Shown: positions 18,259-59,528 of the stretch, piece by piece
Layout: each line of letters starts with the position of its first letter
Position numbering within the stretch: the stretch's first letter is position 1
DNA from: Christensenellaceae bacterium
Lineage (GTDB): Bacteria; Bacillota; Clostridia; Christensenellales; CALMFG01
DNA: 64,000 nucleotides
NCBI GenBank assembly: GCA_963666035.2
Contig: CAXXJI010000008.1
Location: forward strand, 22,715 to 86,714
Direction of reading: 5' to 3'
Translations under genes and position numbers: made by a program
Notes under the pieces: model-generated
Seen by the model: the letters and a program-made list of their open reading frames with translations, nothing else
Database searches by the model: none
Told to the model about the DNA's origin: nothing

Positions 18259-18284
18259 GCCACTAGAATCATAGTGGCTTTTTT
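18259..18284 (+). terminator. Rho-independent terminator of the MBOAT operon
   Basis: GCCACTAgaatcaTAGTGGC plus TTTTTT. The T-run abuts the att repeat. Confidence 0.65.
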
Positions 18285-18331
18285 GGTACACCCGACAAGA
18301 TTTGAACTTGCGACCTTACGAGTCGGAGTCG
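18282..18331. repeat. att repeat (distal copy): 50 bp identical to the 3' part of tRNA-Arg at 56058..56107
   Basis: 50/50 identity; sequence diverges immediately on both sides. Confidence 0.9.
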
Positions 18332-18385
18332 GTATCGAAGCCCTTAAAATGGGGATTTTTTGACTAATTGAGGACAGTTTTAGGA

Positions 18386-20818: not shown

Positions 20819-20819
20819 T

Positions 20820-21875: not shown

Positions 21876-21884
21876 AATAGTTCC

Positions 21885-26054: not shown

Positions 26055-26114
26055 AATTCCTCCAATAATTTAATTCTATATTTTATAATAAAGGAAGCAT
26101 AGATGTAGTATAAA

Positions 26115-26235: not shown

Positions 26236-26246
26236 GAAGTTTTTGT

Positions 26247-27010: not shown

Positions 27011-27637
27011 TTATCGAACATCACTCTGAAAAGCCACAGCTTTCCCAAGTATTCTCACATTATTCATCTCTTCACCCTGATAAACCAACGGTTTATACGC
27101 CGGATTCTCAGCCACCAAGGTGATGTTGTTTTCGTTGATATAAACACGCTTCAGCGTGGCTTCGTCATCGATGAGCACGGCGGCAATTTCCCCATCGTTC
27201 ACCGTGGGCTGCTGCCGGATAAACACCAGGTCACCGTCTTGGATGCGGGCGTTTATCATACTGTCGCCTTTTACCTGAAGGCAGAAGTCGGCCTGTATTT
27301 CGGCACCGACTTGAACATAGTATTCAAAGTTCTGTTCAGCAAAAGTTGGTGTACCCGCGGCGATAGTGCCGAGCACGGGAATCTTGCGCTTTTCGATTTT
27401 ATAGATATTATCAGGCGCTTTTGCGAGTCCGATTTCTTTTGTATCTATTCTTCCTATAAGGTAGTCGGTAGATACATCAAACAAATCTGCCAATTGTTTC
27501 ATAGTTTCTGGATTAGGGGTGGAATCTCCATTTTCCCATTTTGCATATGCTTGCTGAGACACGAACAATTCTTTTGCAACTTGTGCTTGTGATAACCCAA
27601 GATCGCCCCTACATTCTTTTAAACGTTCTCTTAACAT
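27011..27637 (-). CDS. cI: CI-type repressor: XRE HTH + S24 (LexA-like) autopeptidase
   Basis: HTH LSQAQVAKELFVSQQAYAKWENG. S24 Ser in VKGDSMINARIQDGDLVFI and Lys in ATLKRV. Confidence 0.9.
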   Translation of the reverse strand: MLRERLKECRGDLGLSQAQVAKELFVSQQAYAKWENGDSTPNPETMKQLADLFDVSTDYLIGRIDTKEIGLAKAPDNIYKIEKRKIPVLGTIAAGTPTFAEQNFEYYVQVGAEIQADFCLQVKGDSMINARIQDGDLVFIRQQPTVNDGEIAAVLIDDEATLKRVYINENNITLVAENPAYKPLVYQGEEMNNVRILGKAVAFQSDVR

Positions 27638-45194: not shown

Positions 45195-46370
45195 ATGTGG
45201 CAATTCTATATCAATGGCATCGAGCAGATCGATAAGGCGATATCTGCGACCGCATCCACACAGCTGGATCGGCAGAACAATACGTTCAGCGTAAACTTAA
45301 AAGATATCCATGAAACCTATCACTTTTTGGAAAGCGTGATCCGTATCGACGGCGAGGACATCGTGTCCGGTATCATCACCGGCCAGCGGTTTAAGGACAA
45401 AGGCAGCAAGCGCGCGGACCTCACGGTGGAGGATCATTACTATATTCTCCAGCGACGGTGCGTGGCCGAGCGGTACACGGACATGACGGTCTCGGATATC
45501 CTGATTCATGCCTTGACCAAGTACGCGCCCGAATTTTCGACTGCGTTTATCGATCCGACGCCCAAGGTGGTGGCAAGTTTCCCTTGCGACTATATCTACC
45601 TGTCCGAGCTTATCACCAAGCTCATCGCCTACCTGCCCGGATGGCATTACTACATCGATGCCGATCGGGCGTTTCACTTGTTTGAAACTTACGAAGCGGA
45701 TGGGGTGCGCTTTGAGCCGGTGGACGGCAAATGGAACTATCTTCGCAACTCGCTGGAAGTGGACTATGAAGCCGAGAACGTGGTTTCCCGGGTGTGGGTG
45801 ATCGGTGCCAAACAGGCGGCCGAACAGCCCATCACTCAGTATTTTACCGGAGACGGACAGAACCGCTATTTCACGCTAGCGTATGAGCCGAACTATGCCG
45901 AGGTGTACTTGGACGATGTACTGAAGAACAGTCTCTTGGATTCCAATGATGACGGCGCGCAGGATTTCCTGATCAGCAAAACGGGCAAAGCGCTGTATAT
46001 CCCGGCCAATATTGAGACGCCGTTCACCGGGGAAATCAAGATCGTGTACCGTCCGACTATGCAGTATATCGACTACTTTGCGCGAAGCGATGCGGACAAC
46101 CCGTATTTGCTGGAAGCAATCATCAAAAACAAAGACGTGGCGAACAAGCTGGAGACGCGGGGCTACGGCAAAGCCGAGATCCAGCGCCGGCGAAGCATTC
46201 AGCGCACGGTACGTTTAAAAACCTATGAGAAGGTCTGGATCGGACAGCGGCACTATGTCAAGGATCCAGATTACGACGTGGACGGCTTTTATTTGGCCAC
46301 GAAAGTCAGCGTGTCCTTCCCGACGGTGGGACGGCCGCTGTTTACCGTGACATTGGAGGAAATCACATGA
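45195..46370 (+). CDS. Tail tip/baseplate protein (distal tail or Gp37-like)
   Basis: First gene after the tape measure gene; 391 aa. Confidence 0.5.
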   Translation: MWQFYINGIEQIDKAISATASTQLDRQNNTFSVNLKDIHETYHFLESVIRIDGEDIVSGIITGQRFKDKGSKRADLTVEDHYYILQRRCVAERYTDMTVSDILIHALTKYAPEFSTAFIDPTPKVVASFPCDYIYLSELITKLIAYLPGWHYYIDADRAFHLFETYEADGVRFEPVDGKWNYLRNSLEVDYEAENVVSRVWVIGAKQAAEQPITQYFTGDGQNRYFTLAYEPNYAEVYLDDVLKNSLLDSNDDGAQDFLISKTGKALYIPANIETPFTGEIKIVYRPTMQYIDYFARSDADNPYLLEAIIKNKDVANKLETRGYGKAEIQRRRSIQRTVRLKTYEKVWIGQRHYVKDPDYDVDGFYLATKVSVSFPTVGRPLFTVTLEEIT

Positions 46371-46594
46371 GCAGTTTAACCGAATTACTGCAGGGGCAGA
46401 ACGATCGCATCACCGCGCTGGAGGATGCCACGCTGGATGAGAACTTGATCTTGCCGAAGATCCAAAAGGTCTATGACGGCATCGAAGTGTCGGCGCGGAT
46501 CCGCGTTAAGCGCGCGAAATATTATTTATGCGGGCAGATCACTTGCGGCCCTGACCAAAACAACTGCATGGAATATGCGGAGGTGGTGTACTGA
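46367..46594 (+). CDS. Small tail-associated protein, unknown
   Basis: 75 aa, translationally coupled on both sides. Confidence 0.45.
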   Translation: MSSLTELLQGQNDRITALEDATLDENLILPKIQKVYDGIEVSARIRVKRAKYYLCGQITCGPDQNNCMEYAEVVY

Positions 46595-46926
46595 TGATAT
46601 CCGATCGACTGTTGACTTTTGTGGCACAAGCATTAAGCGCTGAGATCACGCACCTCGGTGTGGGTGATGGCGCGGCGCCGGATGTGGATGATGCGAGCCT
46701 GCCGGATGAGGTACTGCGCAAAACCGCTAATTCATATCTGGACGGCGTGGAGATCATCAAAGAGATCTATCTCGACGAGACTGAGTTGAACGGAACCACC
46801 ATAAAAAGCGCCGGGGTGTATGGGGGCGACAACACCGTGCTGTATGCCGGCGGTGCCTTTGAAGTCTTAAAGCAGGCGGGCGAGAGCCTGACCATCTCGG
46901 TGGAACTGACAGTGGGGAGAGAGTAA
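46594..46926 (+). CDS. Tail-associated protein, unknown
   Basis: 110 aa, coupled (ATGA overlap). Confidence 0.45.
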   Translation: MISDRLLTFVAQALSAEITHLGVGDGAAPDVDDASLPDEVLRKTANSYLDGVEIIKEIYLDETELNGTTIKSAGVYGGDNTVLYAGGAFEVLKQAGESLTISVELTVGRE

Positions 46927-46928
46927 GT

Positions 46929-48248
46929 ATGGGATACGATAAGCAAACTTGGGTGGATAACGAAACCCACTTAACCGCCGCACGACTGAACCATATGGAA
47001 GGCGGCATCGAGGAAGCCGGACGCTCCGGGAATATCTTAAACATCCCAGCGGGCGATCTTATGTCCGGGGACGCGATCGCCTTTAACGGCAGCGGCTTTA
47101 TCAAGACCGCTCAGGCTAATTACCTGTATGACGGCCGGGACGCCGTCAATCACGGGGTGATGGCCTATACGTCGCCTTCGGCAGATATCGGGTACACCCT
47201 GTTTGTCCAGCCGGATGGAAACCTGGACTTTGGCACCACCCCCGTGCCATGCGCGCTGGTGCTGTCCGCCATCACCATCTTTGTGGACTTCAACCCGCCG
47301 TTTACCAATCCCAAGGTCTACAGCGGCGTGATGCAGGGCTTGCTCGCCATGCCGGGCGTCAGCGGGTACGTCCGCATCAAAGTCCATCTGCCCGAAGACG
47401 CGGACGGGGTCGAAATTCGGGTGAAGGGTTCTGCGTGGACTGAGGGCGATGATATCCATACAGGATACCGGGTTGCGGATATCACGGACGATACCGGCCT
47501 TTACGGGGTCAACCAATGGTATGAAGCGGATATCCATACCGCCTCAGGCGGGACCCTCTCGGACGGCGATCTGGCCTATATCAAATGCTTCCCGTACGCG
47601 GGCACGGTGGCCAATGCCGAAATCGGCGAGAATGAGATCACATCCACCATGGGTATCCTGGAGCTGGAATACCTGCCCGGCAATATCTCGGGCAGTACGG
47701 TCATGGACAGCGCAGGCACTAACGACGGAACCCTGACCAATGTGATATTGGGGTCGGGCACCGGCATGGTTGCGGACAGCTTCGATATGATAGCGGGGGA
47801 TATTGAGTTATCTTCCGATATTGATATGTCCGGCAAAACCATTGTGGCTGGCATCAATGTGACCGGCGGCGCAGACCGCGGGTTTTGGGGATACAAGGGT
47901 TCAAGGCATATCTGGGGTTTATACCGGGGCGGCAATATCTGTATTGGCGGCGATAACAATACCGGATACTTCTCAGCGGCACAGACGGCCGCGGAGTGGT
48001 TCTTCATCGGCGCACATTATCTACCCGGGCACGCGCTGAAAGTTTGGATTGACGATGCTGACCCGGACACCAGCGGGGACTGGTCCGGGGTTTCCACCTT
48101 AAACGCCATTGGGCAGGCGAGTCCGTATTCGATACTAGGCGGGGCCGCGATCAAGATGACGGGCAAGATGGATACGATTCGGATATTTAGCGAGGAATTG
48201 AAGGATATCGATTTTGAGAACCTGCGAAACGGAGGGAGCTGGTGCTGA
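46929..48248 (+). CDS. Tail fibre / receptor-binding protein with a LamG-like C-terminal domain
   Basis: N-terminus KQTWVDNETHLTAARLNHMEGGIEEA is typical of fibre proteins. The C-terminus has a LamG-like pattern (GTNDGTL...IRIFSEEL). Confidence 0.55.
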   Translation: MGYDKQTWVDNETHLTAARLNHMEGGIEEAGRSGNILNIPAGDLMSGDAIAFNGSGFIKTAQANYLYDGRDAVNHGVMAYTSPSADIGYTLFVQPDGNLDFGTTPVPCALVLSAITIFVDFNPPFTNPKVYSGVMQGLLAMPGVSGYVRIKVHLPEDADGVEIRVKGSAWTEGDDIHTGYRVADITDDTGLYGVNQWYEADIHTASGGTLSDGDLAYIKCFPYAGTVANAEIGENEITSTMGILELEYLPGNISGSTVMDSAGTNDGTLTNVILGSGTGMVADSFDMIAGDIELSSDIDMSGKTIVAGINVTGGADRGFWGYKGSRHIWGLYRGGNICIGGDNNTGYFSAAQTAAEWFFIGAHYLPGHALKVWIDDADPDTSGDWSGVSTLNAIGQASPYSILGGAAIKMTGKMDTIRIFSEELKDIDFENLRNGGSWC

Positions 48249-48556
48249 TGATGGCGATTAAGACAAGGGCTGAGAACTGGACGTCTGAGTTTCTACTCGG
48301 GCAAATCGGGGCGATGGTGGTATTGGAAGTGGAGACACTCCCGACCTATACCCATATCGTCATTCATGACGAAACGTTTACCCAGCGGTGCGTGCCGGGT
48401 AAATTTGGTGAGTCACTCACCTATGCCGAATTGAATGAAATCCGAACGCTTTTAGAAGAGCTCGGCGATTACGGACAGGCCGCGGGGAGTGTCAGCGAGC
48501 TGAAGCTTCGAAAAGAAATCACGGATATCCAGCTGGCGCTGGTGGAAGGGAGCTAG
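48242..48556 (+). CDS. XkdW-like small tail-fibre-associated protein
   Basis: 104 aa between the fibre gene and the XkdX-like gene. Confidence 0.4.
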   Translation: MLMMAIKTRAENWTSEFLLGQIGAMVVLEVETLPTYTHIVIHDETFTQRCVPGKFGESLTYAELNEIRTLLEELGDYGQAAGSVSELKLRKEITDIQLALVEGS

Positions 48557-48559
48557 GAC

Positions 48560-48664
48560 ATGGCTAAAATATGGGCGGCACTGATCAGTAAGGGCAGAAA
48601 GACCATCGACGATGTACCCGAAGGGTTACGGTTCGCGGTACAGGCGATACTAAACGAGGAGTAA
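48560..48664 (+). CDS. XkdX/CD1375-like mini-protein (not in the ORF track)
   Basis: MAKIWAALISKGRKTIDDVPEGLRFAVQAILNEE; 34 aa, located before the lysis genes. Confidence 0.45.
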   Translation: MAKIWAALISKGRKTIDDVPEGLRFAVQAILNEE

Positions 48665-48671
48665 AGCACAT

Positions 48672-49337
48672 ATGGAATTAAAGATGCGAAGCCGCGGCAG
48701 GGCGGTGAAGAAACTGCAGGAAGATTTAAAGGCCTTAGGGTACAAGGTGGCGCCGGACGGGATATTCGGCCTAAACACCTTAAGGGCGGTCAGGAACTTT
48801 CAGGAAGACAATGATATGAAGGTGGACGGAGTAGCAGGTCATTTCACGCAGATGGCCATTTTTAATGCCCTCAACAAAGTGGCAAAACCCGAGCCGCCCC
48901 AAAGCGCACACTTTACCATGGGTGACTTTATATCACCGGCCGATGCGGATGCGGTGAACCGCGGGATACCACAAAGTTATTGGCCCAACATTCAAACGGT
49001 CATGGATCGGCTGGAAGTGGTGCGAAAATCGATCGGTGATCAAGATATTATTATCCGGTCCGGATACCGATCCCCCAAGTACAACCGAAGGGTCGGCGGT
49101 GCCGCGGGCAGTCAGCACCTGTATGGTAAAGCGGTGGATATCTATGTGAAAGATCGCATCATCACCTGCAGTGACCTCGCGAATCAGATCTATTTTGATG
49201 ATGGCCTTAAAGTGCTGTTCGGCGGGTACGGTCTCGGCTCGGACACCAATGTGCATTTGGATATCCGAGAGAGAAAAGACCCGTCAAAGCCGATCATCTG
49301 GTGGTACGGCAAGAAAAGCTGGAAGGAATGGAGATAG
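48672..49337 (+). CDS. Endolysin: PG_binding_1 + peptidase M15 (D-Ala-D-Ala/L-Ala-D-Glu peptidase)
   Basis: N-terminal LQEDLKALGYKVAPDGIFG..T..AV..FQ and SGYRSPKYNRRVGGAAGSQHLYGKAVDI. Confidence 0.8.
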   Translation: MELKMRSRGRAVKKLQEDLKALGYKVAPDGIFGLNTLRAVRNFQEDNDMKVDGVAGHFTQMAIFNALNKVAKPEPPQSAHFTMGDFISPADADAVNRGIPQSYWPNIQTVMDRLEVVRKSIGDQDIIIRSGYRSPKYNRRVGGAAGSQHLYGKAVDIYVKDRIITCSDLANQIYFDDGLKVLFGGYGLGSDTNVHLDIRERKDPSKPIIWWYGKKSWKEWR

Positions 49338-49339
49338 CT

Positions 49340-49558
49340 ATGGACACGATGACAAATGCGGCATTCAGTCAAATCGGCACATATATCGTTATCTTCATGG
49401 GTGTGATACTGGTTTTCTTTTTCAACTGGGTGGTGAACCGCATCAAGCTGTTAGTGCTCTGCATGATGGCGGTGATGGACGGCTTAAAGGAACTTGGGGT
49501 CAACGGCGAAGTGAAAAAGCGCTTTGATGCGCTGAGAGAGCAGATTGTAAAGGACTAG
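49340..49558 (+). CDS. Putative holin (one TM plus amphipathic tail)
   Basis: FSQIGTYIVIFMGVILVFFFNWVV, located between the two lysins. Confidence 0.5.
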   Translation: MDTMTNAAFSQIGTYIVIFMGVILVFFFNWVVNRIKLLVLCMMAVMDGLKELGVNGEVKKRFDALREQIVKD

Positions 49559-49563
49559 GATAT

Positions 49564-50436
49564 ATGACAGCACAAGAATGGGTCAAGGTCTATGAAAAGC
49601 AGGGCAGGGAAGCGGCGTTTGATATCTTGGCGGGCATCGCCAAGCCGTATGAGGGCTACGGGGTACGCATCAGTTTGATGATCGCGCAATTCCTGCAGGA
49701 AAGCTACAAGGGCGGCGGCCGGTGGTCGGGGCTTTTTTTAAACCAAAACAATATGCATGGCATCAAGAGCGACAAAGGGGCTTTACTGCCGACGCAGGAG
49801 GAAGTGGGCGGCGAGCTGTTTGATATGAACAGCACCTTTGCGGTTTACACCAGCATCGATGACGCGATTCTCGCCTATATCAAGCTGATGTGCGGCTCAC
49901 GGTACTTCGAAGTCCGGGCGGCTGCTACGTGGCCGGGCGCGGTCAAGCAGCTGGGCTTATCGCCTTATGCGACAGCGTCCGATTATGGCGCGGCAGTGCG
50001 GTACTGGATGGAGAAGTACGAGCTGTACCGATACGACACCTACGAGTTCTATGACCGCCGTGATGAGGTGTTTAACACCACGCGCTTTCGGGACCGGGGC
50101 GGCCGGGTGTTCCGGGTGCAGATGCTGTTGATGGAAGTGGGGTATGATATCCAGCCGAACAGCATTTATGACCTAACGACCTTCGCCATGGTGAAGGACT
50201 TCCAAGCGAAAACTGGCCTTTTGGTGGATGGGGTCTGCGGTATCAACACGTTTTTGATGCTGCAGGAGTTGATCATCGCGCAGAGCACGGGAAACACGGT
50301 TCTGCAGGATGATCCGATTGAGGAAGTGCAGATCGACAAACCAGAGATGGATGCGCTATTACGCATGCTGAAGATAGAAAAAAAGAGACAAGTGATCATT
50401 GGCGAATCGGCCAAAGAAAGTGAGGTAATGAAATGA
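49564..50436 (+). CDS. Second endolysin: N-acetylglucosaminidase (GH73) + PG_binding_1
   Basis: MIAQFLQESYKGG...NNMHGIK. C-terminal VQMLLMEVGYDI...VKDFQAKTGLLVDGVCG. Confidence 0.8.
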   Translation: MTAQEWVKVYEKQGREAAFDILAGIAKPYEGYGVRISLMIAQFLQESYKGGGRWSGLFLNQNNMHGIKSDKGALLPTQEEVGGELFDMNSTFAVYTSIDDAILAYIKLMCGSRYFEVRAAATWPGAVKQLGLSPYATASDYGAAVRYWMEKYELYRYDTYEFYDRRDEVFNTTRFRDRGGRVFRVQMLLMEVGYDIQPNSIYDLTTFAMVKDFQAKTGLLVDGVCGINTFLMLQELIIAQSTGNTVLQDDPIEEVQIDKPEMDALLRMLKIEKKRQVIIGESAKESEVMK

Positions 50437-50621
50437 CGCAAGAAAAATGGAGAAGCCCGGTGGTCTGGGTGACGCTGGCCACGGCGGTGGTGGGTTTTTT
50501 GGTCAACACCTTGGAGCTGAATATCAACTCCGAGTTGGTGCTGGCCATGGTGAACGCCGGGGTGACTTTGCTGGTTGGGTTCGGGATTTTGAACAATCCG
50601 ACCAACAAGACGGGGTTTTAA
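50433..50621 (+). CDS. Holin, phi-LC3-like (two TM)
   Basis: 62 aa with two TM segments and a C-terminal NNPTNKTGF resembling the DPTTKG tail of the LC3 family. Confidence 0.6.
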   Translation: MTQEKWRSPVVWVTLATAVVGFLVNTLELNINSELVLAMVNAGVTLLVGFGILNNPTNKTGF

Positions 50622-50651
50622 AATTTAAGGCGAACAGAATATCAACAATGG

Positions 50652-50679
50652 GGCTCTCGCATTTGCGAGGGCTTTTTTT
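50652..50679 (+). terminator. Terminator of the late operon
   Basis: GGGCTCTCGCatttGCGAGGGCT plus TTTTTT. Confidence 0.7.
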
Positions 50680-50714
50680 AGTGCTAAAATATATTTCCAA
50701 GGAGGCGAAAGGTT

Positions 50715-50957
50715 ATGAAACTGGTATACAAAGAGTTGAGCATCTATGAGGTGCTGTGGTTATTTGAAATGGGTGAGCCGATCACATTAAGTGAGCTGAT
50801 CGCTAAAGGCGCAAAAGAAATGAGGGTGATAGACGCCAAGTGCAAGGGCTGGATTGAGCGGTGCGGAAATGGAGAAGGGATGCATGAGTCGTTTCTGTTG
50901 ACTAGGATTGGGTATCGGGCAAGGGGGATATATGGAGGTGTGTATAGAAATGCGTGA
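50715..50957 (+). CDS. 80-aa conserved phage-end protein, unknown (paralog fragment at 1..67)
   Basis: GGAGG RBS; 3' end conserved with the window start. Confidence 0.6.
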   Translation: MKLVYKELSIYEVLWLFEMGEPITLSELIAKGAKEMRVIDAKCKGWIERCGNGEGMHESFLLTRIGYRARGIYGGVYRNA

Positions 50958-51354
50958 ATGGATCGGCAAACAAATGAAAAAGCTTCCTTAAATACGTGCA
51001 ATGTTACATGCATTATTCTTTTAGAAGATAATAGTTGAAAGAAGAATAGATGACTGATACAATTAACAAATACAAATTAAAGTATTTATTACCAATATAG
51101 CTAAAGCGTGTAAACATCTGCTGGTGAGGCTTGTGCAATTCTAATAGTTGTACCAATAAAAAAATTAAATGTTTAAAATTCATTAAGGGTTTTCGAAAGG
51201 GATGTTATCAAATTAACAAAGAAAATTTATATTAATTTTTTGATAATATCAGTAATAGTAAAATGGTAGTGTATAATTGATTACACTGCAAGTACGAATT
51301 TGCTATATCAAGCATAAAATTAATCAAATTTCTTTGAAGGGATTACTAAAGGAA

Positions 51355-51879
51355 ATGAATCAAAATAGGCGTTGGGGTTGGGTGATTTTTTTATTAGCCG
51401 CTGCGATTGTGGTTATAATAACAAGCCATTCTAGAATAAAACTAAGTACAGACATTGCAGAAAGCAGGGCAGAAAGACAAAATGCAGAAGAAACTGCATT
51501 TATGGAGAATATTGATATAAACCAAATGCTTGGTGATTGGTCAGCAAGATATAATGATAGAAATGGAACAGTTCAAAAAACGATACACATACAAAACTGC
51601 ACGTATGAAGGTAATTATATCGTTGGAATTTATGGTTATATTGAAGTTGGATTGGTGGACAATTCAGAAGTATACGGTTCTTATGAATTTGTTGGAACTG
51701 TAAACTATTATGGACATCCTGATATGAAGTATATGCCGATTGAAATCAATGCTACAAAAACCATTCAAGATAGTAATCAAGTAGAAAAAGTATCTCTTGA
51801 GGGTAGTTTTCGAGGAAAAGATATAGAACTTAGGAGATCTACTGAAATTATAGATAGTCAAATCTTTAGACGAGAATAA
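51355..51879 (+). CDS. AT-rich cargo: membrane-anchored protein with a beta-rich ectodomain, unknown
   Basis: TM WGWVIFLLAAAIVVIITS. Start ambiguous (ATG 51355 or TTG 51334). Confidence 0.55.
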   Translation: MNQNRRWGWVIFLLAAAIVVIITSHSRIKLSTDIAESRAERQNAEETAFMENIDINQMLGDWSARYNDRNGTVQKTIHIQNCTYEGNYIVGIYGYIEVGLVDNSEVYGSYEFVGTVNYYGHPDMKYMPIEINATKTIQDSNQVEKVSLEGSFRGKDIELRRSTEIIDSQIFRRE

Positions 51880-51920
51880 TTTAATTTTCTGAAATCCCGA
51901 AGAAAGGGTGGAGATTTATC

Positions 51921-52016
51921 ATGCGTAAGAATAGAAAAAACGAATGGATGATTTTTGCAATATCACTAATTGCAATAAGTGTTATAGTATTGATTTGTAA
52001 GCTATATCCCGTATAG
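51921..52016 (+). CDS. 31-aa TM peptide (not in the ORF track)
   Basis: GGGTGGAG RBS 7 nt before the ATG. Sequence MRKNRKNEWMIFAISLIAISVIVLICKLYPV. Confidence 0.4.
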   Translation: MRKNRKNEWMIFAISLIAISVIVLICKLYPV

Positions 52017-52247
52017 AAATCATATTATATTTATGTAAAAGCAGTATGCATTAGAAAAGCAAAGCAAAGTAGCAGCTATATATATGCTAGTTATATTCTC
52101 AAATGATGCTTTGAATATTATAAACAGACTACTTGAGAGAACATCAAAAACAAAGAATCTTCTCAGATTAAAATCAGGAACCGAAATATCTAGAGAAAAA
52201 TATAACTTCAGTTTTAAAAAGATGTATGAAATGGAGATTGCTGTACT

Positions 52248-52904
52248 ATGGATAATGATGTTCAAAAACTATTTAAATTAGAGAAAGATTATCAAACGTT
52301 AAGAGAATATGAATCTGAAATCTCATCAGTTTATGGTAGGCAAGACTTACCAAAGACTACATTGATGTCATATGTTGTTTTCTTTATGGTCTTAATGTAT
52401 CTAATATTCTTCATATCTGAAAAGATCGCATATTTCCCGCTTGTCAGTGCTTGGACTCTGTCATTAGTACTTATTTGGATCGTGAATTTTAGAGAGAAAT
52501 ACTATTTGTCAGATGAATACAGAATAATTGTTGAAGAATCAAATGCAGAAATTGCGGACCTGAATGTTGTAAAAAATCAATTGAACAAAGAAATAGGTTT
52601 AAACAATGTAATTGGTGGGAAATATAAGAAACGAGAAATCGTAAATGAGTTGTGTTCGTATATAAGGTCGGGTAGAGCTAAGTCGGTGCAAAGAGCAATT
52701 GACGTTTATGAGTATGAACTTAGACTGGAAAGAGAGCGTCAAGAGCAACTAGAGAGGCAAAGAGCTGAGCAAATGAGAGTGCAAAAAATGAATGAAGAAT
52801 TAAAAAGATTGGAAGAGCGCAAAAAATATGAAGAAAAGCAAAAAAGATGGAGAGAAGAGGAAGAAAGAATCCGAGAAGCAGACGAGGATGCTGGATATTT
52901 TTAA
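52248..52904 (+). CDS. AT-rich cargo: two-TM protein with a highly charged coiled-coil tail, unknown
   Basis: TMs LMSYVVFFMVLMYLIFFI and FPLVSAWTLSLVLIWIVNF. C-terminal RLERERQEQLERQRAEQMR... Confidence 0.6.
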   Translation: MDNDVQKLFKLEKDYQTLREYESEISSVYGRQDLPKTTLMSYVVFFMVLMYLIFFISEKIAYFPLVSAWTLSLVLIWIVNFREKYYLSDEYRIIVEESNAEIADLNVVKNQLNKEIGLNNVIGGKYKKREIVNELCSYIRSGRAKSVQRAIDVYEYELRLERERQEQLERQRAEQMRVQKMNEELKRLEERKKYEEKQKRWREEEERIREADEDAGYF

Positions 52905-52995
52905 GCGCAAGAAGAGGATGATTAAAAGGGGTCTTATCCAAAAGGTGATTTGAAGTTTGATGAAGCAAGCATCAATTGACAATTGTGGAGGTTGC

Positions 52996-53019
52996 TTTAA
53001 CACATTTTTAACACACAAG
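52996..53019. repeat. 24-nt motif TTTAACACATTTTTAACACACAAG, copy 2
   Basis: Identical to 1594..1617. Confidence 0.8.
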
Positions 53020-53061
53020 ATTTGATTGACTCCATCCAAATCATCTATACGATTGGATTGT

Positions 53062-53087
53062 CCTTGCATTTGCAGGGGCTTTTTTTA
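53062..53087 (+). terminator. Hairpin terminator upstream of the STAND gene
   Basis: CCTTGCAtttGCAGGGG then CTTTTTTT. Confidence 0.45.
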
Positions 53088-53146
53088 TTGGAATCATCAA
53101 TGTTATATGGTACGATAAACATAATATGGGTTTTCGGGAGAACGCG

Positions 53147-55867
53147 ATGGGAATTACGCGCAATCAAAAAAGCAACCTCGATGATTTTGTTGGCGTTACT
53201 ACATCTATGCTAACGATTGCAGGAGCTTTCCCAGCCCTTGGAGATTTTGGCATTGCGGCAAATGCGCTTTCTGCAGGTTTTGAATTGCTATATATTGCGC
53301 TCCAAAGAGTGGGAGCTTTTCAAATAGACAAAATTAAATCACTGCAGTTGGAATATGAAGAAGTGATTAAAAAATCATTTGATTGCGCTAAAGGGGAATT
53401 TACATCACATAGTACTAAACAACTTTTCGATGAAGTTAATTTAAAAATCAGTAATCAAATTGAACAAAAAGTGCTGGATAAAGATTCATCGCTTGATGAT
53501 ATATATAATGCTGTACTTAAAGCCGTTATGGGATATTATAAAATCGAACAAGAAACACCAAGCGGGAATGGTATTAAATCTTTTTTTGAGCAATTTTGGC
53601 ATTGTTTTGATGTTGAATTGTCGGCAAAGCCGGAACTTTCATCTTACATTCAAATCAAAGAGCTGCGCAAAATCAAAGACCAGATCCAAAAGCATGAAGA
53701 ATGGCTAATTAGGCATGACGAAGAAATCGAAGAAACAAATAGAATTATTAAAGAAAGCACGTTTATACAACATGAAATTGTTTTTAAACGGCCAGGATTG
53801 CCTGTAAAAGAATATGTTGAGCCTGAAGGCATTGTATTTAAAATCGATAGCAAACTTATGCAGGGACGACCACTACTGATTTGCTCGCCGGGTGGTATAG
53901 GTAAATCTGAGTTGTGCAGGAAATACTATGCGGAGAAAAAAGAAGATGGTGAATTTGTATGGTTTAACTTCATCGACTCGATAGAGACAACGCTTTTGTC
54001 TGTTGCTGATCAAAGCAAATTAGCAGACCCAATAATTAGAAGCATGGAACTGAACAGAGTTTTAGAAAAGCTTAAAATATTGGGGAAATCGGCAACGATT
54101 ATTATTGATAATGTGATTTTTATGCGATCAGAAGATGTGGACTTATTATCTAATATGGGATGCAAGATAATAATTTCTTCGCGAGAGAGGCGTGAGGCGC
54201 TGGAGTGCAATCTTGAGAGATTGGAACTGGATTATCTTCCTATCCCGCTATGTCGAGAAGTTTTTAAAAGATACTCGAAAAAAACAGGTTTAGAAAATGA
54301 GATGGTTGAGTTAGATGAGGTGATAAGCCTTGCTGGCCGGCATACGCTAGCGATTCAGCTTCTAGCCAAAATTTTCGCACAATCACCGAAATATAATAAC
54401 CTTAGAACATTATTGAATGAATTAAATGATAATGGATTCATGCTACCGGAATTGGTCACACAGAACCGCGATGACGAATATCGAGAATTTATAGCGCATT
54501 TCAGAAAACTATTTGACCTTGCTGGAGTATCAGATGATGCTGACAAGATGCGCGTTCTGAAAAATATGGCCATTATTGGTTCAACTCCCACGCCGCGTGA
54601 GCAATTGTTTAGATGGATTGGCGAAGAATACCAAAAAGCATATAAGGAGTTGGTGAATAGTAGTTGGATTTCTGAGCAGAATTACATGACAAGTATGCAC
54701 GACATGATAAGCGAAGCGATAAAAGCACAAGCTACGCCAGTATACAGCGAATACAAAAAAATAATTGAGGTTATGGCGGAAGAATTGGAATTTGAAGATA
54801 CAGATGCAGCAAAATACAGACCACAATATTTCCAGCAGAATAGGGCAGTGAGTGAAAATATATTGTTATTTGGAGTACGTAACAAAGAAATTGCTCGGCT
54901 ATATCATAACATTGCTGGTGTATACTTTGATAAGGGTGAGTATGAGTCCTCGCTAGAGTATTATAAACAAGCGTTGGAGATAAGAGAGACAGAGCTGGGC
55001 AAGCAGAACGTTGATACAGCTACGACGTATAATGATATTGGATTAGTCTATAAAATCAAAGGTGAATATGATGAAGCGATAAAATATTATAAAAAAGCTT
55101 TATCAATTAGAGAAGAAGTGTTGGGGAGACTACACTCAGATACCGCAACAGTATATAACAATATTGCAGGAGTAAACGGGGCCAAAGGTGAGAATGATAA
55201 GGCGTTAAAGTACTATATGCAAGCCTTGGAGATATGTGAGGCAGTACTAGGTAAACAGGATCCACTAACAGCAACAACATATAACAACATAGCGATAGTA
55301 TATAAAGCCAAGCGAGACTACAGAAAGGCTCTAAATTACTATCATCAAGCATTAGAGATAAGTGAAGCAGTACTGGGAAAGCAACACCCGAATACCGCTA
55401 CGATGTATAATAATATAGGAATAGTATATAAAATCAAAGGTGAATATGATGAAGCGATAAAATATTATAAACAAGCTTTAGTGATTAGGGAAGCTGTACT
55501 GGGGAAGCAGCATCCATTTACAGCTTCAACATATAATAACATTGCGGGAGTAAAGGGCGCTAAAGGTGAGAATGAAGAAGCGCTAAAGTACTATATGCTG
55601 GCATTGGAGATAAATAAAACCGTGCTAGGTAAACAACATCCGCGAACGGCTACGGTAACTCATAATATTGCAGGAGTATTTAAAGCTATTGGTAAGTATG
55701 AAATTTCACTAGAATATTATAAAAAATCTTATAATGTTTTGCTTGAGGTGCTTAGCAAAGATCATTCCAATACACGTACAGTTTATAAGAATATGAAATT
55801 ATGCTTTATCGAAAGTGGCCGGGACCAAGACAAATTTGAATCGTGGTTGGATGAGAATATTAAATAG
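53147..55867 (+). CDS. STAND (NB-ARC-like) P-loop NTPase with C-terminal TPR array and an unassigned N-terminal domain (Avs/NLR-like)
   Basis: Walker A SPGGIGKSE (53891..53908) and Walker B TIIIDNV. About 9 kinesin-light-chain-type TPRs (TATTYNNIG.VYK.KG.Y.EA..YY..AL.I.E). GGGAG RBS before ATG 53147. Confidence 0.8.
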   Translation: MGITRNQKSNLDDFVGVTTSMLTIAGAFPALGDFGIAANALSAGFELLYIALQRVGAFQIDKIKSLQLEYEEVIKKSFDCAKGEFTSHSTKQLFDEVNLKISNQIEQKVLDKDSSLDDIYNAVLKAVMGYYKIEQETPSGNGIKSFFEQFWHCFDVELSAKPELSSYIQIKELRKIKDQIQKHEEWLIRHDEEIEETNRIIKESTFIQHEIVFKRPGLPVKEYVEPEGIVFKIDSKLMQGRPLLICSPGGIGKSELCRKYYAEKKEDGEFVWFNFIDSIETTLLSVADQSKLADPIIRSMELNRVLEKLKILGKSATIIIDNVIFMRSEDVDLLSNMGCKIIISSRERREALECNLERLELDYLPIPLCREVFKRYSKKTGLENEMVELDEVISLAGRHTLAIQLLAKIFAQSPKYNNLRTLLNELNDNGFMLPELVTQNRDDEYREFIAHFRKLFDLAGVSDDADKMRVLKNMAIIGSTPTPREQLFRWIGEEYQKAYKELVNSSWISEQNYMTSMHDMISEAIKAQATPVYSEYKKIIEVMAEELEFEDTDAAKYRPQYFQQNRAVSENILLFGVRNKEIARLYHNIAGVYFDKGEYESSLEYYKQALEIRETELGKQNVDTATTYNDIGLVYKIKGEYDEAIKYYKKALSIREEVLGRLHSDTATVYNNIAGVNGAKGENDKALKYYMQALEICEAVLGKQDPLTATTYNNIAIVYKAKRDYRKALNYYHQALEISEAVLGKQHPNTATMYNNIGIVYKIKGEYDEAIKYYKQALVIREAVLGKQHPFTASTYNNIAGVKGAKGENEEALKYYMLALEINKTVLGKQHPRTATVTHNIAGVFKAIGKYEISLEYYKKSYNVLLEVLSKDHSNTRTVYKNMKLCFIESGRDQDKFESWLDENIK
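55049..55093 (+). repeat. 45-nt perfect intragenic repeat (TPR unit), copy 1
   Basis: TATAAAATCAAAGGTGAATATGATGAAGCGATAAAATATTATAAA, identical at 55427..55471. Confidence 0.85.
55427..55471 (+). repeat. 45-nt perfect intragenic repeat (TPR unit), copy 2
   Basis: Identical to 55049..55093; offset of 378 nt equals three 42-aa TPR units. Confidence 0.85.
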
Positions 55868-56033
55868 TCTTTTATTTTGGTATTGTTGGATTATTAGCGA
55901 AATTGAGGACACTTTGAGGACAAAAAGTCTCGAAAAGCCCCGAAAAGTGCCGAAAGTACAAACGCGTGTACGTAAAATCAGGCCATTTTGGAAAATCAAT
56001 ATATTGATGCGAACACGCCAATAAAAACACAAA

Positions 56034-56057
56034 AACCACCATATATGGTGGTTTTTC
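56034..56057 (+). terminator. Terminator of the STAND gene
   Basis: AACCACCATatATGGTGGTT plus TTT, directly abutting the att repeat. Confidence 0.6.
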
Positions 56058-56107
56058 TTTGGTACACCCGACAAGATTTGAACTTGCGACCTTACGAGTC
56101 GGAGTCG
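56058..56107. repeat. att repeat (tRNA-proximal copy)
   Basis: Identical to 18282..18331; covers tRNA-Arg from the anticodon stem to CCA plus 2 nt. Confidence 0.9.
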
Positions 56108-56136
56108 TACGCTCTATCCAGCTGAGCTACGGGTGC
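56060..56136 (-). tRNA. tRNA-Arg (anticodon CCG)
   Basis: Manual cloverleaf of 77 nt: acceptor GCACCCG/CGGGTGT (G1-U72), D arm GCTC/GAGC, anticodon stem TACGA/TCGTA with loop CTCCGAC, T arm GCAAG-TTCAAAT-CTTGT, A73 and encoded CCA. Confidence 0.9.
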
Positions 56137-56313
56137 AAATATTGTTTTAGCAGTCTAAACGTTATTATACCGTTATGAGCCACGTACGTCAATTTATAAT
56201 CATAAAATTTATTAAATCGGATTTTTTTGTGCACATTTTGCATGGTGATGAGCTTGGATACAGGCTTTTAACAGGTTATGTTTAAAAAAAGATATAAGTA
56301 TAAAATAAATACC

Positions 56314-56342
56314 TTGCAATAAACAGTAGTGTGTGTTATATT
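56314..56342 (+). promoter_or_regulatory. Candidate sigma-A promoter of the padR operon
   Basis: TTGCAA, 17 nt, TATATT, about 30 nt before the AAGGAGG RBS. Confidence 0.5.
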
Positions 56343-56370
56343 GTATTCAAGCAACATAAGGAGGTGTTCC

Positions 56371-56688
56371 GTGAATATCCAGTTTAAAAAAGGAATTCTG
56401 GAACTGTTAGTTCTCTCTTTGCTCCTTGAAAAAGACAGATACGGGTATGAACTAGTGAACGAGATCTCGAAAAACATATCCATATCCGAAGGGACGATTT
56501 ATCCGCTGCTCAGACGATTAAATAACGACGGATATTTTGAAACGTACTTAAAGGAATCTTCCGAAGGCCCGCCGCGAAAGTATTATCGCATCACAGAAAG
56601 CGGCAAGGAAGCCTTAAAGGATTTAAGCGAAGAATGGGACAAGTTCTTGGTAGGTGTAGGAAAAATTTTAAAAGGAGATAAGAAATGA
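56371..56688 (+). CDS. padR: PadR family transcriptional regulator
   Basis: [21 protein letters not shown]...[13 protein letters not shown] 56371 after AAGGAGG. Confidence 0.85.
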
Positions 56689-58349
56689 ATAAAAATGAGT
56701 TTATGAGAAAGCTGAAAGACGGACTTGTTGGTTTAAACCAAACCGACAAGCGCGAGATTCTGCTGGACTATGAAGAACATTTTTTAGACGGCATAAAGCT
56801 TGGCAGAACGGAAGAGGAAATCTGCGAGAGTCTGGGAGATCCGGTTGAGATTGCTGCAAACATTAAAAAAGAAGGAAGAAGCGCGAGCGAGACAGCGAAC
56901 GACGGCGTCAATACCGCCGCTTACATTATTGGTATCATCGCTTTGGCGGTGGGCAGCCTATGGCTGGTTGGATTTGCGTTTAATGTCCTCGGCGCACTAT
57001 TTGGCGCCTTTATCGGTATCTTTGCGGTACTGGCCTTTCCTTTAACAGTGGGCGTCAAGATATTGGCGGTCAGCGCTCTTGTTTTGACCATTGCGGTTTC
57101 GACCATGATTATCCTTGGTCTCATCATGCTTTGCATCATGATTTTACGATGGTTCAAACAGATGATTAACGGCCTTACAAAAGATGAGGATAAAAAGATC
57201 AAACGTGAATTTAAGATGTTCAAGGTAAAAGGCATGGTTTGGGTAACGCTTGCGATTATCGCGGTTCTGGCATTTGGCGGCATCCTGTATGGAGCGCTTT
57301 CCACGGGTGCAGGCGTAGCGCGTGCCGCATTCAACGGCGATTTCAACACGTTTATCAACAGTGTAGAAGGTATGGAAGATATCGACAGTGAATCGGAGTT
57401 TTTCGAATTTGTTGAAGAAAATGAAGATTTTCCTTTTGGACTGATCTTTGATGAAAGCAAAGTCAATGCCAGCGATTTCCGCTTTACTACATGGTTTGGC
57501 GGAAGAAAAATGATCAATCAGACTGAAGGGCTGGACATGACCAATGTGGATACCGTTATCATCAGTGCCGGCTCGGCAGGTATCGACGTGATCGGCGGCG
57601 GCAAGGCGGAGGCCAAACTGACCGGTCGTTCGCGCTACGGGACTGAAAAGCTGGAAGTGAGCAAAAGCGGCTCCATGCTGGAAATCAAAGTTATACCGGC
57701 TTTTGGGCCCTTCAACAACGGATGGGTGAATCTGGACGTAACCTTGCCGGATGAAATACTGGAGAATGTGACCGTAAAGAACGCTTCGGGCAGTATCGAG
57801 GTGGAAGGCGTGATGGCGGAAGCATTGGAGGTGATGGGTTCCTCGGGCAGTATTAAAATTGATGGTGATGGTTACGCATACGATGTGCTCTCGGTGGATA
57901 ATACCTCAGGCAAAATCACTGTGGAGGACGTGACCGACGCACAAGTTGTGTATGTGGAAAATACTTCGGGTACCATCGTCCTTAATAATATTGTGTGTGA
58001 CAGCTTAAAGGTGAAAAACACTTCGGGCCGCATTGAAGGCCAGATGCTGGAAGGTGACATGGAAGTGACCAACACTTCGGGCACCATCAGCCTGTATGCG
58101 GACTTGGGTGAGGGTGCCAGTACGGTGCGGTGTTCATCCGGCCGGATTGAGCTGAGTTTAAAGCAAGAGCCGATGGATATCACAGCCAATGCGACATCAG
58201 GATCAATCAGTGTGGCCGAAAACGAGCTGCTTTTGGTTAGCATGGACAGCCGTACGGGATATGTCGGAGAATATGCTGACGAAAGTGTATCAACGCCCAG
58301 CATTGAAGTCAAAGCCACCAGCGGTAATGTAGACATCCTGTTTCATTAA
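56685..58349 (+). CDS. Membrane protein: DUF1700-like N-terminus, TM block and DUF4097-like beta-helix C-terminus
   Basis: N-terminus [27 protein letters not shown]. Four TM segments. C-terminal repeats NTSG(K/T/R)I. Typical PadR partner. Confidence 0.7.
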
Positions 58350-58367
58350 AGAATAAAAAATCAGAAG

Positions 58368-58393
58368 AGTGTGAACTCGCTTCACACTTTTTT
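58368..58393 (+). terminator. Rho-independent terminator
   Basis: AGTGTGAActcgcTTCACACT plus TTTTT. Confidence 0.7.
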
Positions 58394-58442
58394 ATTTTGC
58401 ACATTTATAGTATAGTATAGAGACGAAAAAAAGGAGAGAAGC

Positions 58443-59528
58443 ATGGCGGAACAGGGTTTGAAAGGCCGCGTGGTTGTGGGCATGAGCGGCGGTGTAGATT
58501 CGGCGGTGGCGGCGTATCAGCTTAAGAAAGCGGGATACGATGTAGTCGGCGTGTTTATGAAAAACTGGGACGAGACGCTGGACAGCGGTGAATGCACGGC
58601 TACAGCCGATTTTCGGGATGTTCAGTCGGTTTGTGATGCCATCGATATCCCTTACTATACGGTCAATTTTCAACAGGAGTATTACGACCGTGTATTTACG
58701 TATTTCTTAGAGGAATACAGAAACGGACGTACGCCTAATCCGGATGTAATGTGCAATTCTGAGATCAAGTTTGACGCTTTTTTGGAATTTGCGTATAAAA
58801 CCGGCGCTTCGACGATCGCAACCGGGCATTACGCCAGATTGGATAAAACCGACGGGATTAAGCTTTTAAAAGGCAAGGACGCAGGGAAAGATCAGTCCTA
58901 TTTTCTCTGTATGCTGACGCAAGACCAGCTAAAGGATGTGGTGTTTCCAGTTGGGGATATGGAGAAGCCTGAGGTGCGCAGGATTGCGGAAGAATTGCAT
59001 CTGTCGGTGGCGGACAAAAAAGACAGTACAGGCATTTGTTTTATCGGTGAACGCAAGTTTAAGGAATTTCTAAAACAGTTTTTGCCCGCCAAACCGGGGG
59101 AGATTCGCAGTATTTCCGGCGAATACATTGGAAAGCATGACGGGCTGATGTATTACACATTGGGGCAGAGACGGGGCTTGGATATTGGCGGACGGGGCAC
59201 AGGCGAGCGATGGTTTGTGGCGGAAAAGGATTTGAAAAAAAATATACTATACGTGGTACAGGGCGATCAAACACCGCTGTATTCCAAAGCGCTGAAAACT
59301 GCGGGGTTTAACTGGATATCCGGAAAAGCGCCGACCAAAGCCTTTGACTGTACCGCCAAGTTCCGGTACCGGCAGGCCGACCAACAAGTGCGTGCGACGC
59401 CGGAAAAAGACGGAACATACATAGAATTTGCAGAACCCCAGCGCGCGGTGACCCCCGGACAATATGCTGTGCTGTATGACGGCGAAGTTTGCCTGGGCGG
59501 CGGGGTGATTAATACCGTTATAAAATAA
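58443..59528 (+). CDS. mnmA: tRNA 2-thiouridine(34) synthase MnmA
   Basis: PP-loop [16 protein letters not shown] and [10 protein letters not shown]. Full-length family architecture. Confidence 0.9.

Follow-up and report, generated by a model that had tools for sequence, protein, structure and literature searches.

The question raised by this locus is what a large signalling NTPase is doing at the edge of a prophage. The window, by which we mean the whole stretch of 64,000 nt analyzed here (positions 22,715 to 86,714 of contig CAXXJI010000008.1 from a Christensenellaceae bacterium), contains a prophage whose last gene before the attachment site attR encodes a STAND protein with a helical N-terminal domain (N-domain), a central NTPase module and a C-terminal array of TPRs. 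We read it as a prophage-borne, single-gene, NLR-like immune sensor, that is, an antiviral STAND of the NB-ARC/TPR type that would protect the lysogen, most likely by abortive infection, with the N-domain as its effector. This statement as a whole, which is weighted towards a defence NLR with an N-terminal effector, is in our judgement evenly poised. Its parts differ in strength: a role in defence or conflict is likely, the N-domain being an effector rather than an adaptor is slightly favoured, and membrane targeting by the N-domain, proposed from its sequence character, is a tentative suggestion that falls somewhat short of an even chance.

The open reading frame (ORF) called for this gene runs from 53126 to 55867 on the plus strand and gives 913 residues. 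The true start is the second ATG, at 53147, which yields 906 residues; we assign it there because a GGGAG Shine-Dalgarno sequence (53136-53140) lies 6 nt 5' of this codon, because entry P0001 of a public protein collection is identical to the 906-residue product, and because the ATG at 53126 is followed within a few codons by an in-frame stop in two related phages (contigs L001 and L083). Residue numbers refer to the 906-residue form. The original prediction of a three-part STAND/NB-ARC-TPR build was borne out, as the profile of the NTPase module matches plant NLR NB-ARC domains, PH0952, AfsR and Avs4, and relatives with the same N-domain pass the Pfam NB-ARC model; both of the motifs that it quoted are present (Table 1). 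Its N-terminal domain of ~250 residues needs trimming: ~245 residues do precede the Walker A motif, but the new helical domain accounts for only ~205 of them. This tripartite architecture within one gene, carried on a mobile element, is the arrangement seen in Avs/bNACHT-like systems. Scanned either complete or as separate N-terminal and central parts, the protein matched only TPR models in Pfam, NCBIfam and PADLOC, those from PADLOC being the generic models PDLC01169 and PDLC01171 together with a weak match to mad8 (E=0.0056).

We assign the central module to a divergent NB-ARC-type STAND because relatives that have the N-domain as well as this NTPase pass PF00931 (P0003, P0029, P0023 and P0025 with 51.8, 46.8, 45.8 and 36.9 bits, respectively, against a gathering threshold of 23.5), because a 12-sequence alignment of the module (A4) retains the invariant motifs of the class, and because its profile matches solved NLRs. 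Searched against the Protein Data Bank (PDB), the A4 profile found Roq1 (4.4e-15), PH0952 (5.3e-10), Sr35 (1e-9), MLA13 (4.9e-9) and ZAR1 (1.6e-8), and further NRC4, AfsR (7.6e-7) and the Avs4 structure 8dgf (1.8e-6). A query with residues 1-583 of the 913-residue translation returned distant relatives, most of them already annotated with PF00931. Invariant in A4 are the GG-GK of Walker A, the D-N of Walker B (D113/N114 in A4 numbering, the Asp being D321 of the 906-residue protein), the sensor-1 Arg (S/T-S-R) and the H-T of G-x-HTLAI at the GLPL position, and the MHD His is nearly invariant. For a Walker A of the form GxxxxGK[ST], the family alignment has GGIGK and the following Ser/Thr of the P-loop without exception, and the Walker B, the sensor-1 Arg and the MHD His of the winged helix are all in place. 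The invariant D-N hints at slow or absent hydrolysis, which would make the module a binding switch.

The N-domain is confined to a very small set of proteins. A profile of residues 1-206 searched against 1.84 billion representative proteins found 11 clusters at E<=0.001, with matches that always start within the first ~40 residues of the protein; all of the clusters looked up are singletons, one of them from Clostridium diolis. Most members are NB-ARC-TPR proteins, whereas in P0026 the N-domain sits on a NACHT-like P-loop (NPHP3_N) without TPRs and in P0030 on an AAA_14 NTPase that has ~1,100 residues of repeats of another kind behind it. Because it is fused to these three types of P-loop NTPase, the N-domain evidently behaves as a transferable N-terminal module. 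The nearest NB-ARC-TPR relatives without it have other N termini, some of which are genuine transmembrane (TM) anchors (Kyte-Doolittle values of 2.8-3.5), and hhalign of the N-domain profile with the N termini of the nearest NB-ARC relatives P0014 and P0007 found them unrelated. No locus could be confirmed when N-domain alignments were searched against GTDB genomes and IMG/VR, and tblastn against 50,697 INPHARED phage and 72,556 PLSDB plasmid records found distant NTPase matches only and no N-domain. A homolog search with the 12-sequence N-domain profile returned only P0022; this protein of 141 residues was considered as a stand-alone N-domain protein and rejected, being the first fragment of a frameshifted full-length gene (L083).

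AlphaFold2, run with the 12-sequence alignment, predicts an all-helical domain with a mean predicted local distance difference test (pLDDT) score of 70.7, in which helices at residues 5-26 and 34-54 (pLDDT 37-52) are followed by a four-helix core at residues 60-159 (pLDDT 84-92) and by a long helix (162-209) that leads into the NTPase. As originally predicted, the domain fits no known effector class: it corresponds neither to a model for nuclease, SIR2, TIR, protease, HeLo, Rx_N, RPW8 or SLATT domains nor to a solved or predicted viral fold. A Pfam scan of the 12 N-domains at E<=5 gave scattered single-member noise, with no HeLo, Helo_like_N, Rx_N, RPW8, SLATT, EAD, Death or CARD match; PADLOC and NCBIfam had nothing over the N-domain region; and the N-domain profile found nothing below E=0.04 among PDB sequences, where the non-significant coiled-coil (CC) matches fell on the last helix and are unrelated. 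Foldseek searches with two AlphaFold2 models gave best E values of 0.54 and 0.77 in the PDB and of 0.27 in BFVD, and the matches to BAR, chemoreceptor, designed-bundle and NRG1 CC-R structures were rejected as generic helical noise. The alignment of the 12 members (A3) has no invariant column, and its sole nearly invariant residue is Phe154; that no polar residue is invariant argues against an enzymatic function.

The one feature conserved among the N-domains is the character of their first helix (alpha1), in which a short charged leader gives way to ~20 residues rich in Gly/Ala/Ser/Thr and hydrophobics, with acidic residues usually just before it. Taking the best 19-residue Kyte-Doolittle window as the measure and 1.6 as the threshold, alpha1 scores 1.07-2.05 across the 12 members, and the core averages -0.2 to -1.0. 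The Gly/Ala-rich hydrophobic stretch GVTTSMLTIAGAFPALGDFGIAANALSAGFELLYIAL that had drawn attention to this region is present at residues 16-52 of the window protein, and the analogy with HeLo or CC domains that had been drawn from it is a reasonable hypothesis with published precedent in Bell domains.

At the other end of the protein, we count seven full TPR units and a partial, truncated cap rather than the nine or so first proposed (Pfam TPR_12, E=2.7e-97; TPR_10, E=2.3e-75). The array diverges quickly, as the original prediction supposed: compared with P0002, the closest homolog (66% identity overall), the TPRs are 41% identical with 56 gap columns, against 75% for the nucleotide-binding domain (NBD), 64% for the N-domain and 60% for the ARC and winged-helix domain (WHD). 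The 45-nt perfect repeat that had been taken as a sign of recent unit duplication is present in units 2 and 5 and lies far beyond chance, since no perfect run of 45 nt arose in 20,000 simulations at 70% block identity. A two-unit duplication (units 2-3 and 5-6) is indeed visible, but unit pairs 2/5 and 3/6 are 82% and 77% identical at the nucleotide level, which fits local gene conversion better than a fresh duplication. Because the perfect run is too long for chance amid units so diverged, it looks more like the mark of local gene conversion or partial re-duplication. Repeat number also varies between phage copies, with a TPR region of ~1.9 kb in the L083 homolog and of 0.97 kb in the window.

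The prophage that carries the gene is 37.8 kb long and flanked by a 50-nt exact direct repeat in tRNA-Arg. The attR that had been proposed is real, its 50 nt being identical to attL, and the gene does sit between the right arm of the phage and attR, in a prophage that is missing from a related genome. Contig L003 of a related metagenome-assembled genome, whose MnmA is 88% identical to that of the window, placing the host among uncultured Clostridia/Eubacteriales, has the sequences of window 16768-18161 and 56020-59528 adjoining around an intact tRNA-Arg; because of this empty site, the region from ~18.3 to 56.06 kb is an insertion. Between the att repeats lie an integrase gene, a four-gene operon for a type II cyclic-oligonucleotide-based antiphage signalling system (CBASS), an Ltp-type surface lipoprotein gene and a repressor gene (Table 1), and further a terminase, two cell-wall hydrolases and a holin. 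The Ltp family is known for superinfection exclusion. The GC content of the STAND gene is 0.371, compared with 0.537 for the phage structural genes and 0.47-0.49 for the host flanks, and the accessory blocks flanking attP (50960-56057 and 18332-26909) are both at ~0.35. Because the two low-GC blocks are contiguous in the circular phage, the STAND gene, attP, two unmatched ORFs, the integrase gene, CBASS and Ltp form one low-GC accessory island.

The original prediction regarded the STAND gene as an insertion specific to this prophage, which did not survive comparison with related phages. L001, the contig of P0002, follows the gene order of the window phage over the whole tail-to-lysis stretch (window 45765-50932) and then continues directly into the STAND cassette, with DNA similarity starting at window 53082; it lacks window 50933-53081, which holds two ORFs with TM-like segments and a 24-nt motif. 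L083, from a third related phage, has a frameshifted full-length homolog directly after the holin gene. There the homolog (10007-13603) is split over frames 2/3/1/2 and is either a pseudogene or the product of long-read indel errors. In all three copies the upstream order is the same, with a terminator, the AATGTTATA box, a ribosome-binding site (RBS) and the start codon. The order of cassette and 24-nt motif differs, the cassette lying upstream of the motif in L001 and downstream of it in the window. Because the three copies have this common upstream layout and the post-lysis position, the cassette is best described as a shared moron of this phage group, transcribed from its own putative promoter, and not as a private insertion. 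It has what is expected of a moron, namely a place inside an att-bounded prophage, foreign GC content, predicted transcription signals of its own and variable placement among related phages.

Several other members of the N-domain family are found on mobile elements of several kinds. P0024 is cargo of an integrative and conjugative element (ICE) with a relaxase and a coupling protein, where its neighbours are a Piwi gene pair, a TIR-like gene and HepT/MNT; P0026 adjoins a large serine recombinase; in Clostridium diolis, P0027 shares an island with two helicases and an EAD7-trypsin gene; and P0025 is near a transposase. No neighbouring gene is conserved across the nine informative loci. The P0024 locus itself (L089, 1-16100) is a dense defence island, with a 2,266-residue Eco57I/helicase protein, the TIR-like gene, the HepT/MNT pair, the N-domain STAND and a 434-residue gene product followed by a 634-residue Piwi-domain protein, the last two of which are possibly a prokaryotic Argonaute (pAgo) system.

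A likely defence role for the STAND gene is supported by the CBASS operon and Ltp gene in the same prophage, by the ICE and island contexts of its relatives and by the post-lysis position in three phages. We envisage that the lysogen would express the gene as a moron with a promoter of its own and that, by analogy with Avs proteins, its fast-diverging TPR array would bind a protein of an infecting phage. The ligand would then release an ADP-locked NB-ARC switch, as in the wider family, and lead to oligomerization; the key residues of such a switch (Walker A Lys, Walker B Asp, sensor-1 Arg and MHD His) are intact. The oligomer would cluster the ~205-residue helical N-domains, which we propose as the effector itself because no partner gene is conserved and as a non-enzyme because no polar residue is invariant. 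Judged from sequence character, their most likely action would be that alpha1 detaches from the four-helix core and enters the membrane, in functional analogy to Bell, HeLo, CC (ZAR1) and MLKL-4HB domains. It is possible, though we lean against it, that the N-domain represents a previously unrecognized family of cell-death execution modules in which STAND clustering lets the hydrophobic first helix go so that it breaches the membrane; the family, carried by Clostridia phages and ICEs on at least three P-loop chassis, would then either have converged on the HeLo, Bell, CC and MLKL domains or have diverged from them beyond recognition.

Several observations weigh against a membrane-directed immune NLR. 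The hydrophobicity of alpha1 is borderline (1.3-1.5 in the window protein, within the family range given above), unlike Bell and HeLo domains, the N terminus has no acidic residue at position 2-3 and does not open directly with hydrophobic residues, and Foldseek found no significant match to HeLo, MLKL, CC or pore-forming structures, the NRG1 CC-R match at E ~4 being noise. Although the window protein has a hydrophobic second helix, alpha2, its counterparts in P0003, P0023 and P0024 are amphipathic and rich in Lys. Because of these members a two-TM hairpin is not a family feature, and the 12 N-domains have neither the two conserved TM helices of SLATT and other 2-TM modules nor a Pfam SLATT match. 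Of the membrane-inserting helical hairpin first proposed, alpha1, consistently hydrophobic in the 12 members, can therefore be kept, but alpha2 cannot, and residues 1-56 are modelled with low confidence (pLDDT <52). In the NTPase, Pfam NB-ARC (PF00931) does not match the window protein, even with the isolated central region at E<=10; Ser takes the place of the first Walker A Gly both in the window protein and in P0002; and Walker B reads DN, not DD/DE, in 12 of the 12 aligned clade members. Because of the last two changes, hydrolysis may be weak. No Avs or bNACHT model of PADLOC matches the protein, and two relatives, P0023 and P0028, have ordinary chromosomal neighbourhoods.

The main rival keeps the defence NLR but makes the N-domain an adaptor or oligomerization module, of death-fold or EAD-like kind, for a separate effector. 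An all-helical bundle of about six helices and a linker, with no conserved residues of catalytic type and with half of the members not hydrophobic enough for a firm TM call, would suit such a part, and EAD domains are common in conflict systems of this sort according to the literature, an EAD7 gene indeed lying near P0027. Yet none of the neighbouring genes recurs across the informative loci, and neither the Pfam scan (for EAD, Death and CARD) nor Foldseek (for death folds) found a match, so that we consider the adaptor unlikely. The protein might instead decide nothing about infection: a non-immune STAND signalling or regulatory ATPase, comparable to the TPR regulators of MalT, AfsR or RNPP type and carried as passive phage cargo, would explain why the NTPase profile also matches AfsR, why Pfam gives weak TPR_MalT and RNPP_C matches and why P0023 and P0028 lie among metabolic genes. 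We think this improbable, as no DNA-binding or output domain was found in Pfam and NCBIfam scans, the TPR_MalT score (44) falls below its cutoff of 45, most informative contexts are a prophage, ICE or defence island, and the distribution of the gene is patchy, with singleton clusters and a foreign GC content.

A part in the life cycle of the phage, for instance in the timing of lysis, in membrane-level superinfection exclusion or in the sensing of induction, is a shade less probable again. The position behind the holin and endolysin genes is kept in three related phages and the N-terminal helix is hydrophobic, but a terminator and a separate promoter-like leader stand between the lysis genes and the cassette, the cassette does not keep a fixed place with respect to other morons and the att-arm motif, the same N-domain/NTPase family occurs outside phages, and a post-lysis, att-proximal slot is in any case the classic site of morons. 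Least probable is a decaying or inactive copy, as might be read from the non-canonical Walker A (SPGGIGKS instead of GxGGxGK[ST]) and from the L083 copy split over four reading frames: the ORF of 906 residues is intact, SPGGIGKS is kept in P0002, where the NBD is the best-conserved part, the key Lys, Ser, Asp, Arg and His are all present, and the frameshifts in L083 may be long-read assembly errors.

With Avs/AVAST proteins (Avs2, Avs4) and prophage-encoded STANDs, the window protein shares a layout of N-terminal effector (putative here), STAND NTPase and C-terminal repeat sensor in one gene, carriage on mobile elements or in defence islands, and a swappable N-terminal module. Its NTPase is, however, closer to plant NLR NB-ARC domains and PH0952 than to Avs4, and its N-domain lies outside the described effector classes. 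Among STANDs, 589 clades have been distinguished, 198 of them associated with defence, and prophage-encoded STANDs as well as TM and 'unknown' effector classes have been described (PMC13581612). The plant CC-NLR resistosomes (ZAR1, Sr35, NRC, MLA13) and the TIR-NLR Roq1 provide the best PDB sequence matches and share the P-loop, hhhhD, TxR-type sensor-1 and MHD motifs, and the proposed logic of oligomerizing and then inserting an N-terminal helix is that of ZAR1. Unlike them, the window protein has a sensor of TPRs rather than leucine-rich repeats, a Walker B with DN and G-x-HTLAI in place of GLPL; its N-domain is not a recognizable Rx_N or RPW8 CC, and the homology is confined to the NTPase module. 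PH0952, a Pyrococcus TPR-STAND, and the AfsR/MalT regulators likewise have a STAND NTPase followed by TPRs but lack the window N-domain or have DNA-binding outputs, and they are chromosomal regulators rather than mobile cargo.

Further parallels in design are the bacterial Bell NB-ARC/TPR NLRs and Bab/Agp, of the Bell/HeLo/Hell/CC/MLKL-4HB superfamily of membrane-targeting domains. Bell-type helical membrane-targeting domains at NLR N termini execute abortive infection; helix release and membrane insertion are established for ZAR1, HeLo, MLKL and, lately, the bacterial Bell-type Bab; and the N-terminal region conserved in Bab is also found in Avs2 and several bNACHTs (bioRxiv 10.1101/2020.01.06.895854; 10.1101/2024.11.07.622273). 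Like these, the window protein combines NB-ARC with TPRs that have highly similar internal repeats and has a helical N-domain in which a hydrophobic, small-residue-rich first helix lies on a four-helix core without an enzymatic signature. The differences are considerable. The window N-domain has ~205 residues and seven helices as opposed to ~80-100 residues and five helices, and in its family the hydrophobic helix begins at residue 12-14, after the charged leader, with Glu or Asp at position 2-3 in 2 of the 12 members, whereas the Bell/HeLo definition places it at the extreme N terminus of a domain of ~80-130 residues. Pfam, PDB profile and Foldseek searches detected no sequence or fold similarity (the Bell set being delimited here by its published description), the window locus has no amyloid (BASS) partner gene, and the N-domain occurs in Clostridia and their phages, where Bell/NLR architectures are reported to be rare or absent.

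Most of this is already on record: prophages are known to encode STANDs, effectors of TM or unknown type occur in hundreds of STAND clades, and NLRs can have helical N-domains that target membranes. What is new is a very rare N-domain family without a fold match, found on Clostridial phages and ICEs and fused to three NTPase chassis. Because prophage STANDs with unannotated effectors are already numerous (PMC13581612), a specialist would hardly be surprised by this one. Should the N-domain prove able to kill on its own, NLRs would gain a new kind of executioner domain, and death by helix insertion would extend to Clostridia and their temperate phages, in which NLR/Bell architectures are reported as rare. 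The protein would then also offer a compact single-gene system in which to follow the coupling of NB-ARC oligomerization to a non-enzymatic effector. The prophage stacks at least three protective modules (type II CBASS, the Ltp gene and the STAND gene) in one low-GC block around attP, another case of defence genes clustered beside the attachment site of a temperate phage, for which the P2/P4 hotspots offer a comparison (PMC9122126).

Table 1. Features of the window and the evidence behind each; positions count from its first nucleotide (aa, residues of the 906-residue protein)
Feature	Position	Strand	Evidence
STAND gene (906 aa + stop; N-domain, NB-ARC, TPR)	53147..55867	+	ORF, exact database match, RBS
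Orphan helical N-domain, aa 1-205 (alpha1/alpha2 low confidence, four-helix core, long linker helix)	53147..53761	+	AlphaFold2, profile search
Helix alpha1, aa 12-31, DDFVGVTTSMLTIAGAFPAL; conserved, hydrophobic, rich in small residues, closed by a P-x-L-G turn (P-G-L in the family consensus); candidate for membrane insertion	53180..53239	+	Alignment A3, hydrophobicity survey of 12 members
Divergent NB-ARC (NBD-ARC-WHD) module, aa 206-582	53762..54892	+	Alignment A4, profile vs PDB, homologs passing PF00931
Walker A SPGGIGKS, aa 247-254	53885-53908	+	Motif reading
Walker B TIIIDNV, aa 317-323	54095-54115	+	Motif reading
Sensor-1 IIISSR	54167-54184	+	Alignment A4
GLPL-position motif AGRHTLAI	54332-54355	+	Alignment A4
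MHD motif SMHDMI (MHD, aa 517-519)	54692-54709	+	Alignment A4
TPR sensor array, 7 full 42-aa TPR_10/TPR_12 units (aa 583-876) and partial C-terminal cap	54893..55864	+	Pfam, 126-nt periodicity, unit table
45-nt perfect repeat, copy 1, TPR unit 2	55049..55093	+	Exact match, chance test
45-nt perfect repeat, copy 2, TPR unit 5	55427..55471	+	Exact match, chance test
Cassette leader, conserved in related phages, putative promoter	53083..53146	+	BLAST/alignment with L001 5395-5460; reading of L083 9940-10002
Promoter-like TTGGAA	53088-53093	+	
Extended -10-like box AATGTTATA, kept in all three phages	53099-53107	+	
Intrinsic-terminator-like hairpin and T-run closing the upstream transcription unit	53060..53079	+	Equivalent hairpin 5' of cassette in L083
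24-nt motif TTTAACACATTTTTAACACACAAG, two TTAACACA copies 11 nt apart; probably vestigial integrase arm-type site	52996..53019	+	Exact second copy 1594-1617
TTGAGGACACTTTGAGGAC, candidate arm-type site of resident integrase (P arm)	55903..55921	+	
Hairpin with T-runs on both sides, between gene and att core	56031..56056	.	Scan called minus strand; plus-strand T-run read from sequence
attR core, 50-nt exact repeat over 3' part of tRNA-Arg(ccg)	56058..56107	.	Exact repeat, ARAGORN, Rfam
attL core, identical 50 nt	18282..18331	.	Exact repeat; empty site in L003
tRNA-Arg(ccg), only tRNA found; its 3' 48 nt inside the 50-nt repeat	56060-56136	-	ARAGORN and Rfam
Tyrosine integrase	20820-21875	-	Between att repeats
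Complete type II CBASS operon, four genes, adjoining integrase	21885-26054	-	
CBASS CD-NTase	24987-26054	-	
CBASS E1/E2, Cap2-like	23297-24994	-	
CBASS JAB, Cap3-like	22840-23376	-	
CBASS 1TM-SAVED effector	21885-22850	-	
Ltp-type surface lipoprotein, three Lipoprotein_Ltp repeats	26247-26909	-	
S24/HTH repressor, adjoining Ltp gene	27011-27637		

The 24-nt motif upstream of the cassette is exact at both of the places where it had been noticed, but as a marker of the phage group alone it fails, being a widespread att-arm element of integrative elements. Its 23-mer TTAACACATTTTTAACACACAAG occurs in 2 IMG/VR and 7 metagenome contigs (L090-L098) as well as at 8295-8317 of L001, and at least 10 other contigs have it without a mismatch; att cores of tRNA-3' type are ~110-150 nt away in several of them, and a tyrosine integrase gene immediately precedes it in two. 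Because its two TTAACACA copies are one helical turn apart and because of this att and integrase neighbourhood, the motif probably represents tandem integrase arm-type sites. Its exact conservation spans elements that target different tRNAs. As a regulatory site linked to the STAND gene it was rejected, since it adjoins att cores and integrase genes in unrelated elements without a STAND match.

A different direct-repeat motif, TTGAGGACAnTTTnAGGAC, lies in both arms of the prophage, at 18368-18386 (P' arm, 37 nt inside attL) and at 55903-55921 (155 nt inside attR). The pattern was derived from these two copies, which are its sole matches in the window, and they are suggestive as candidate arm-type sites of the resident tRNA-Arg integrase. 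That the motif at the tRNA-Arg core is a different one suggests either that the integration module was replaced or that the cassette was inserted between an old arm and the core. We read the hairpin at 56031-56056 as a putative bidirectional terminator that would also end STAND transcription. An Rfam scan found no structured RNA besides the tRNA. Near the left end of the window a tRNA-3'-end-like sequence, ATCCCTCTCTCTCCGCCA, occurs twice, ~180 nt apart (1712-1736 and 1895-1916), without an intact tRNA at 1712-1916 by ARAGORN or Rfam. Directly adjoining the first of these copies is a block of 125 nt with 90% identity to the right end of L001, in which the STAND gene is followed 3' by the 24-nt motif, a terminator and a tRNA-3'-like core (matching window 1595-1721). 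The region looks like the attR of a second element that reaches left of the window, or the scar of such an element.

Two pairs of further ORFs lie in the low-GC blocks. Between the lysis genes and the cassette, plus-strand ORFs at 51355-51879 (174 residues) and 52248-52904 (218 residues) each encode a TM-like segment, as read from their translations, and have no family match; they are probably further morons, and as partners of the STAND gene they were rejected, being missing from both L001 and L083. On the minus strand between attL and the integrase gene, two overlapping ORFs (18409-20226, 605 residues; 20198-20818, 206 residues) with a GC content of ~0.31-0.37 had no Pfam, PADLOC or PHROGs match and, from their place next to attP, are a candidate new defence or accessory pair.

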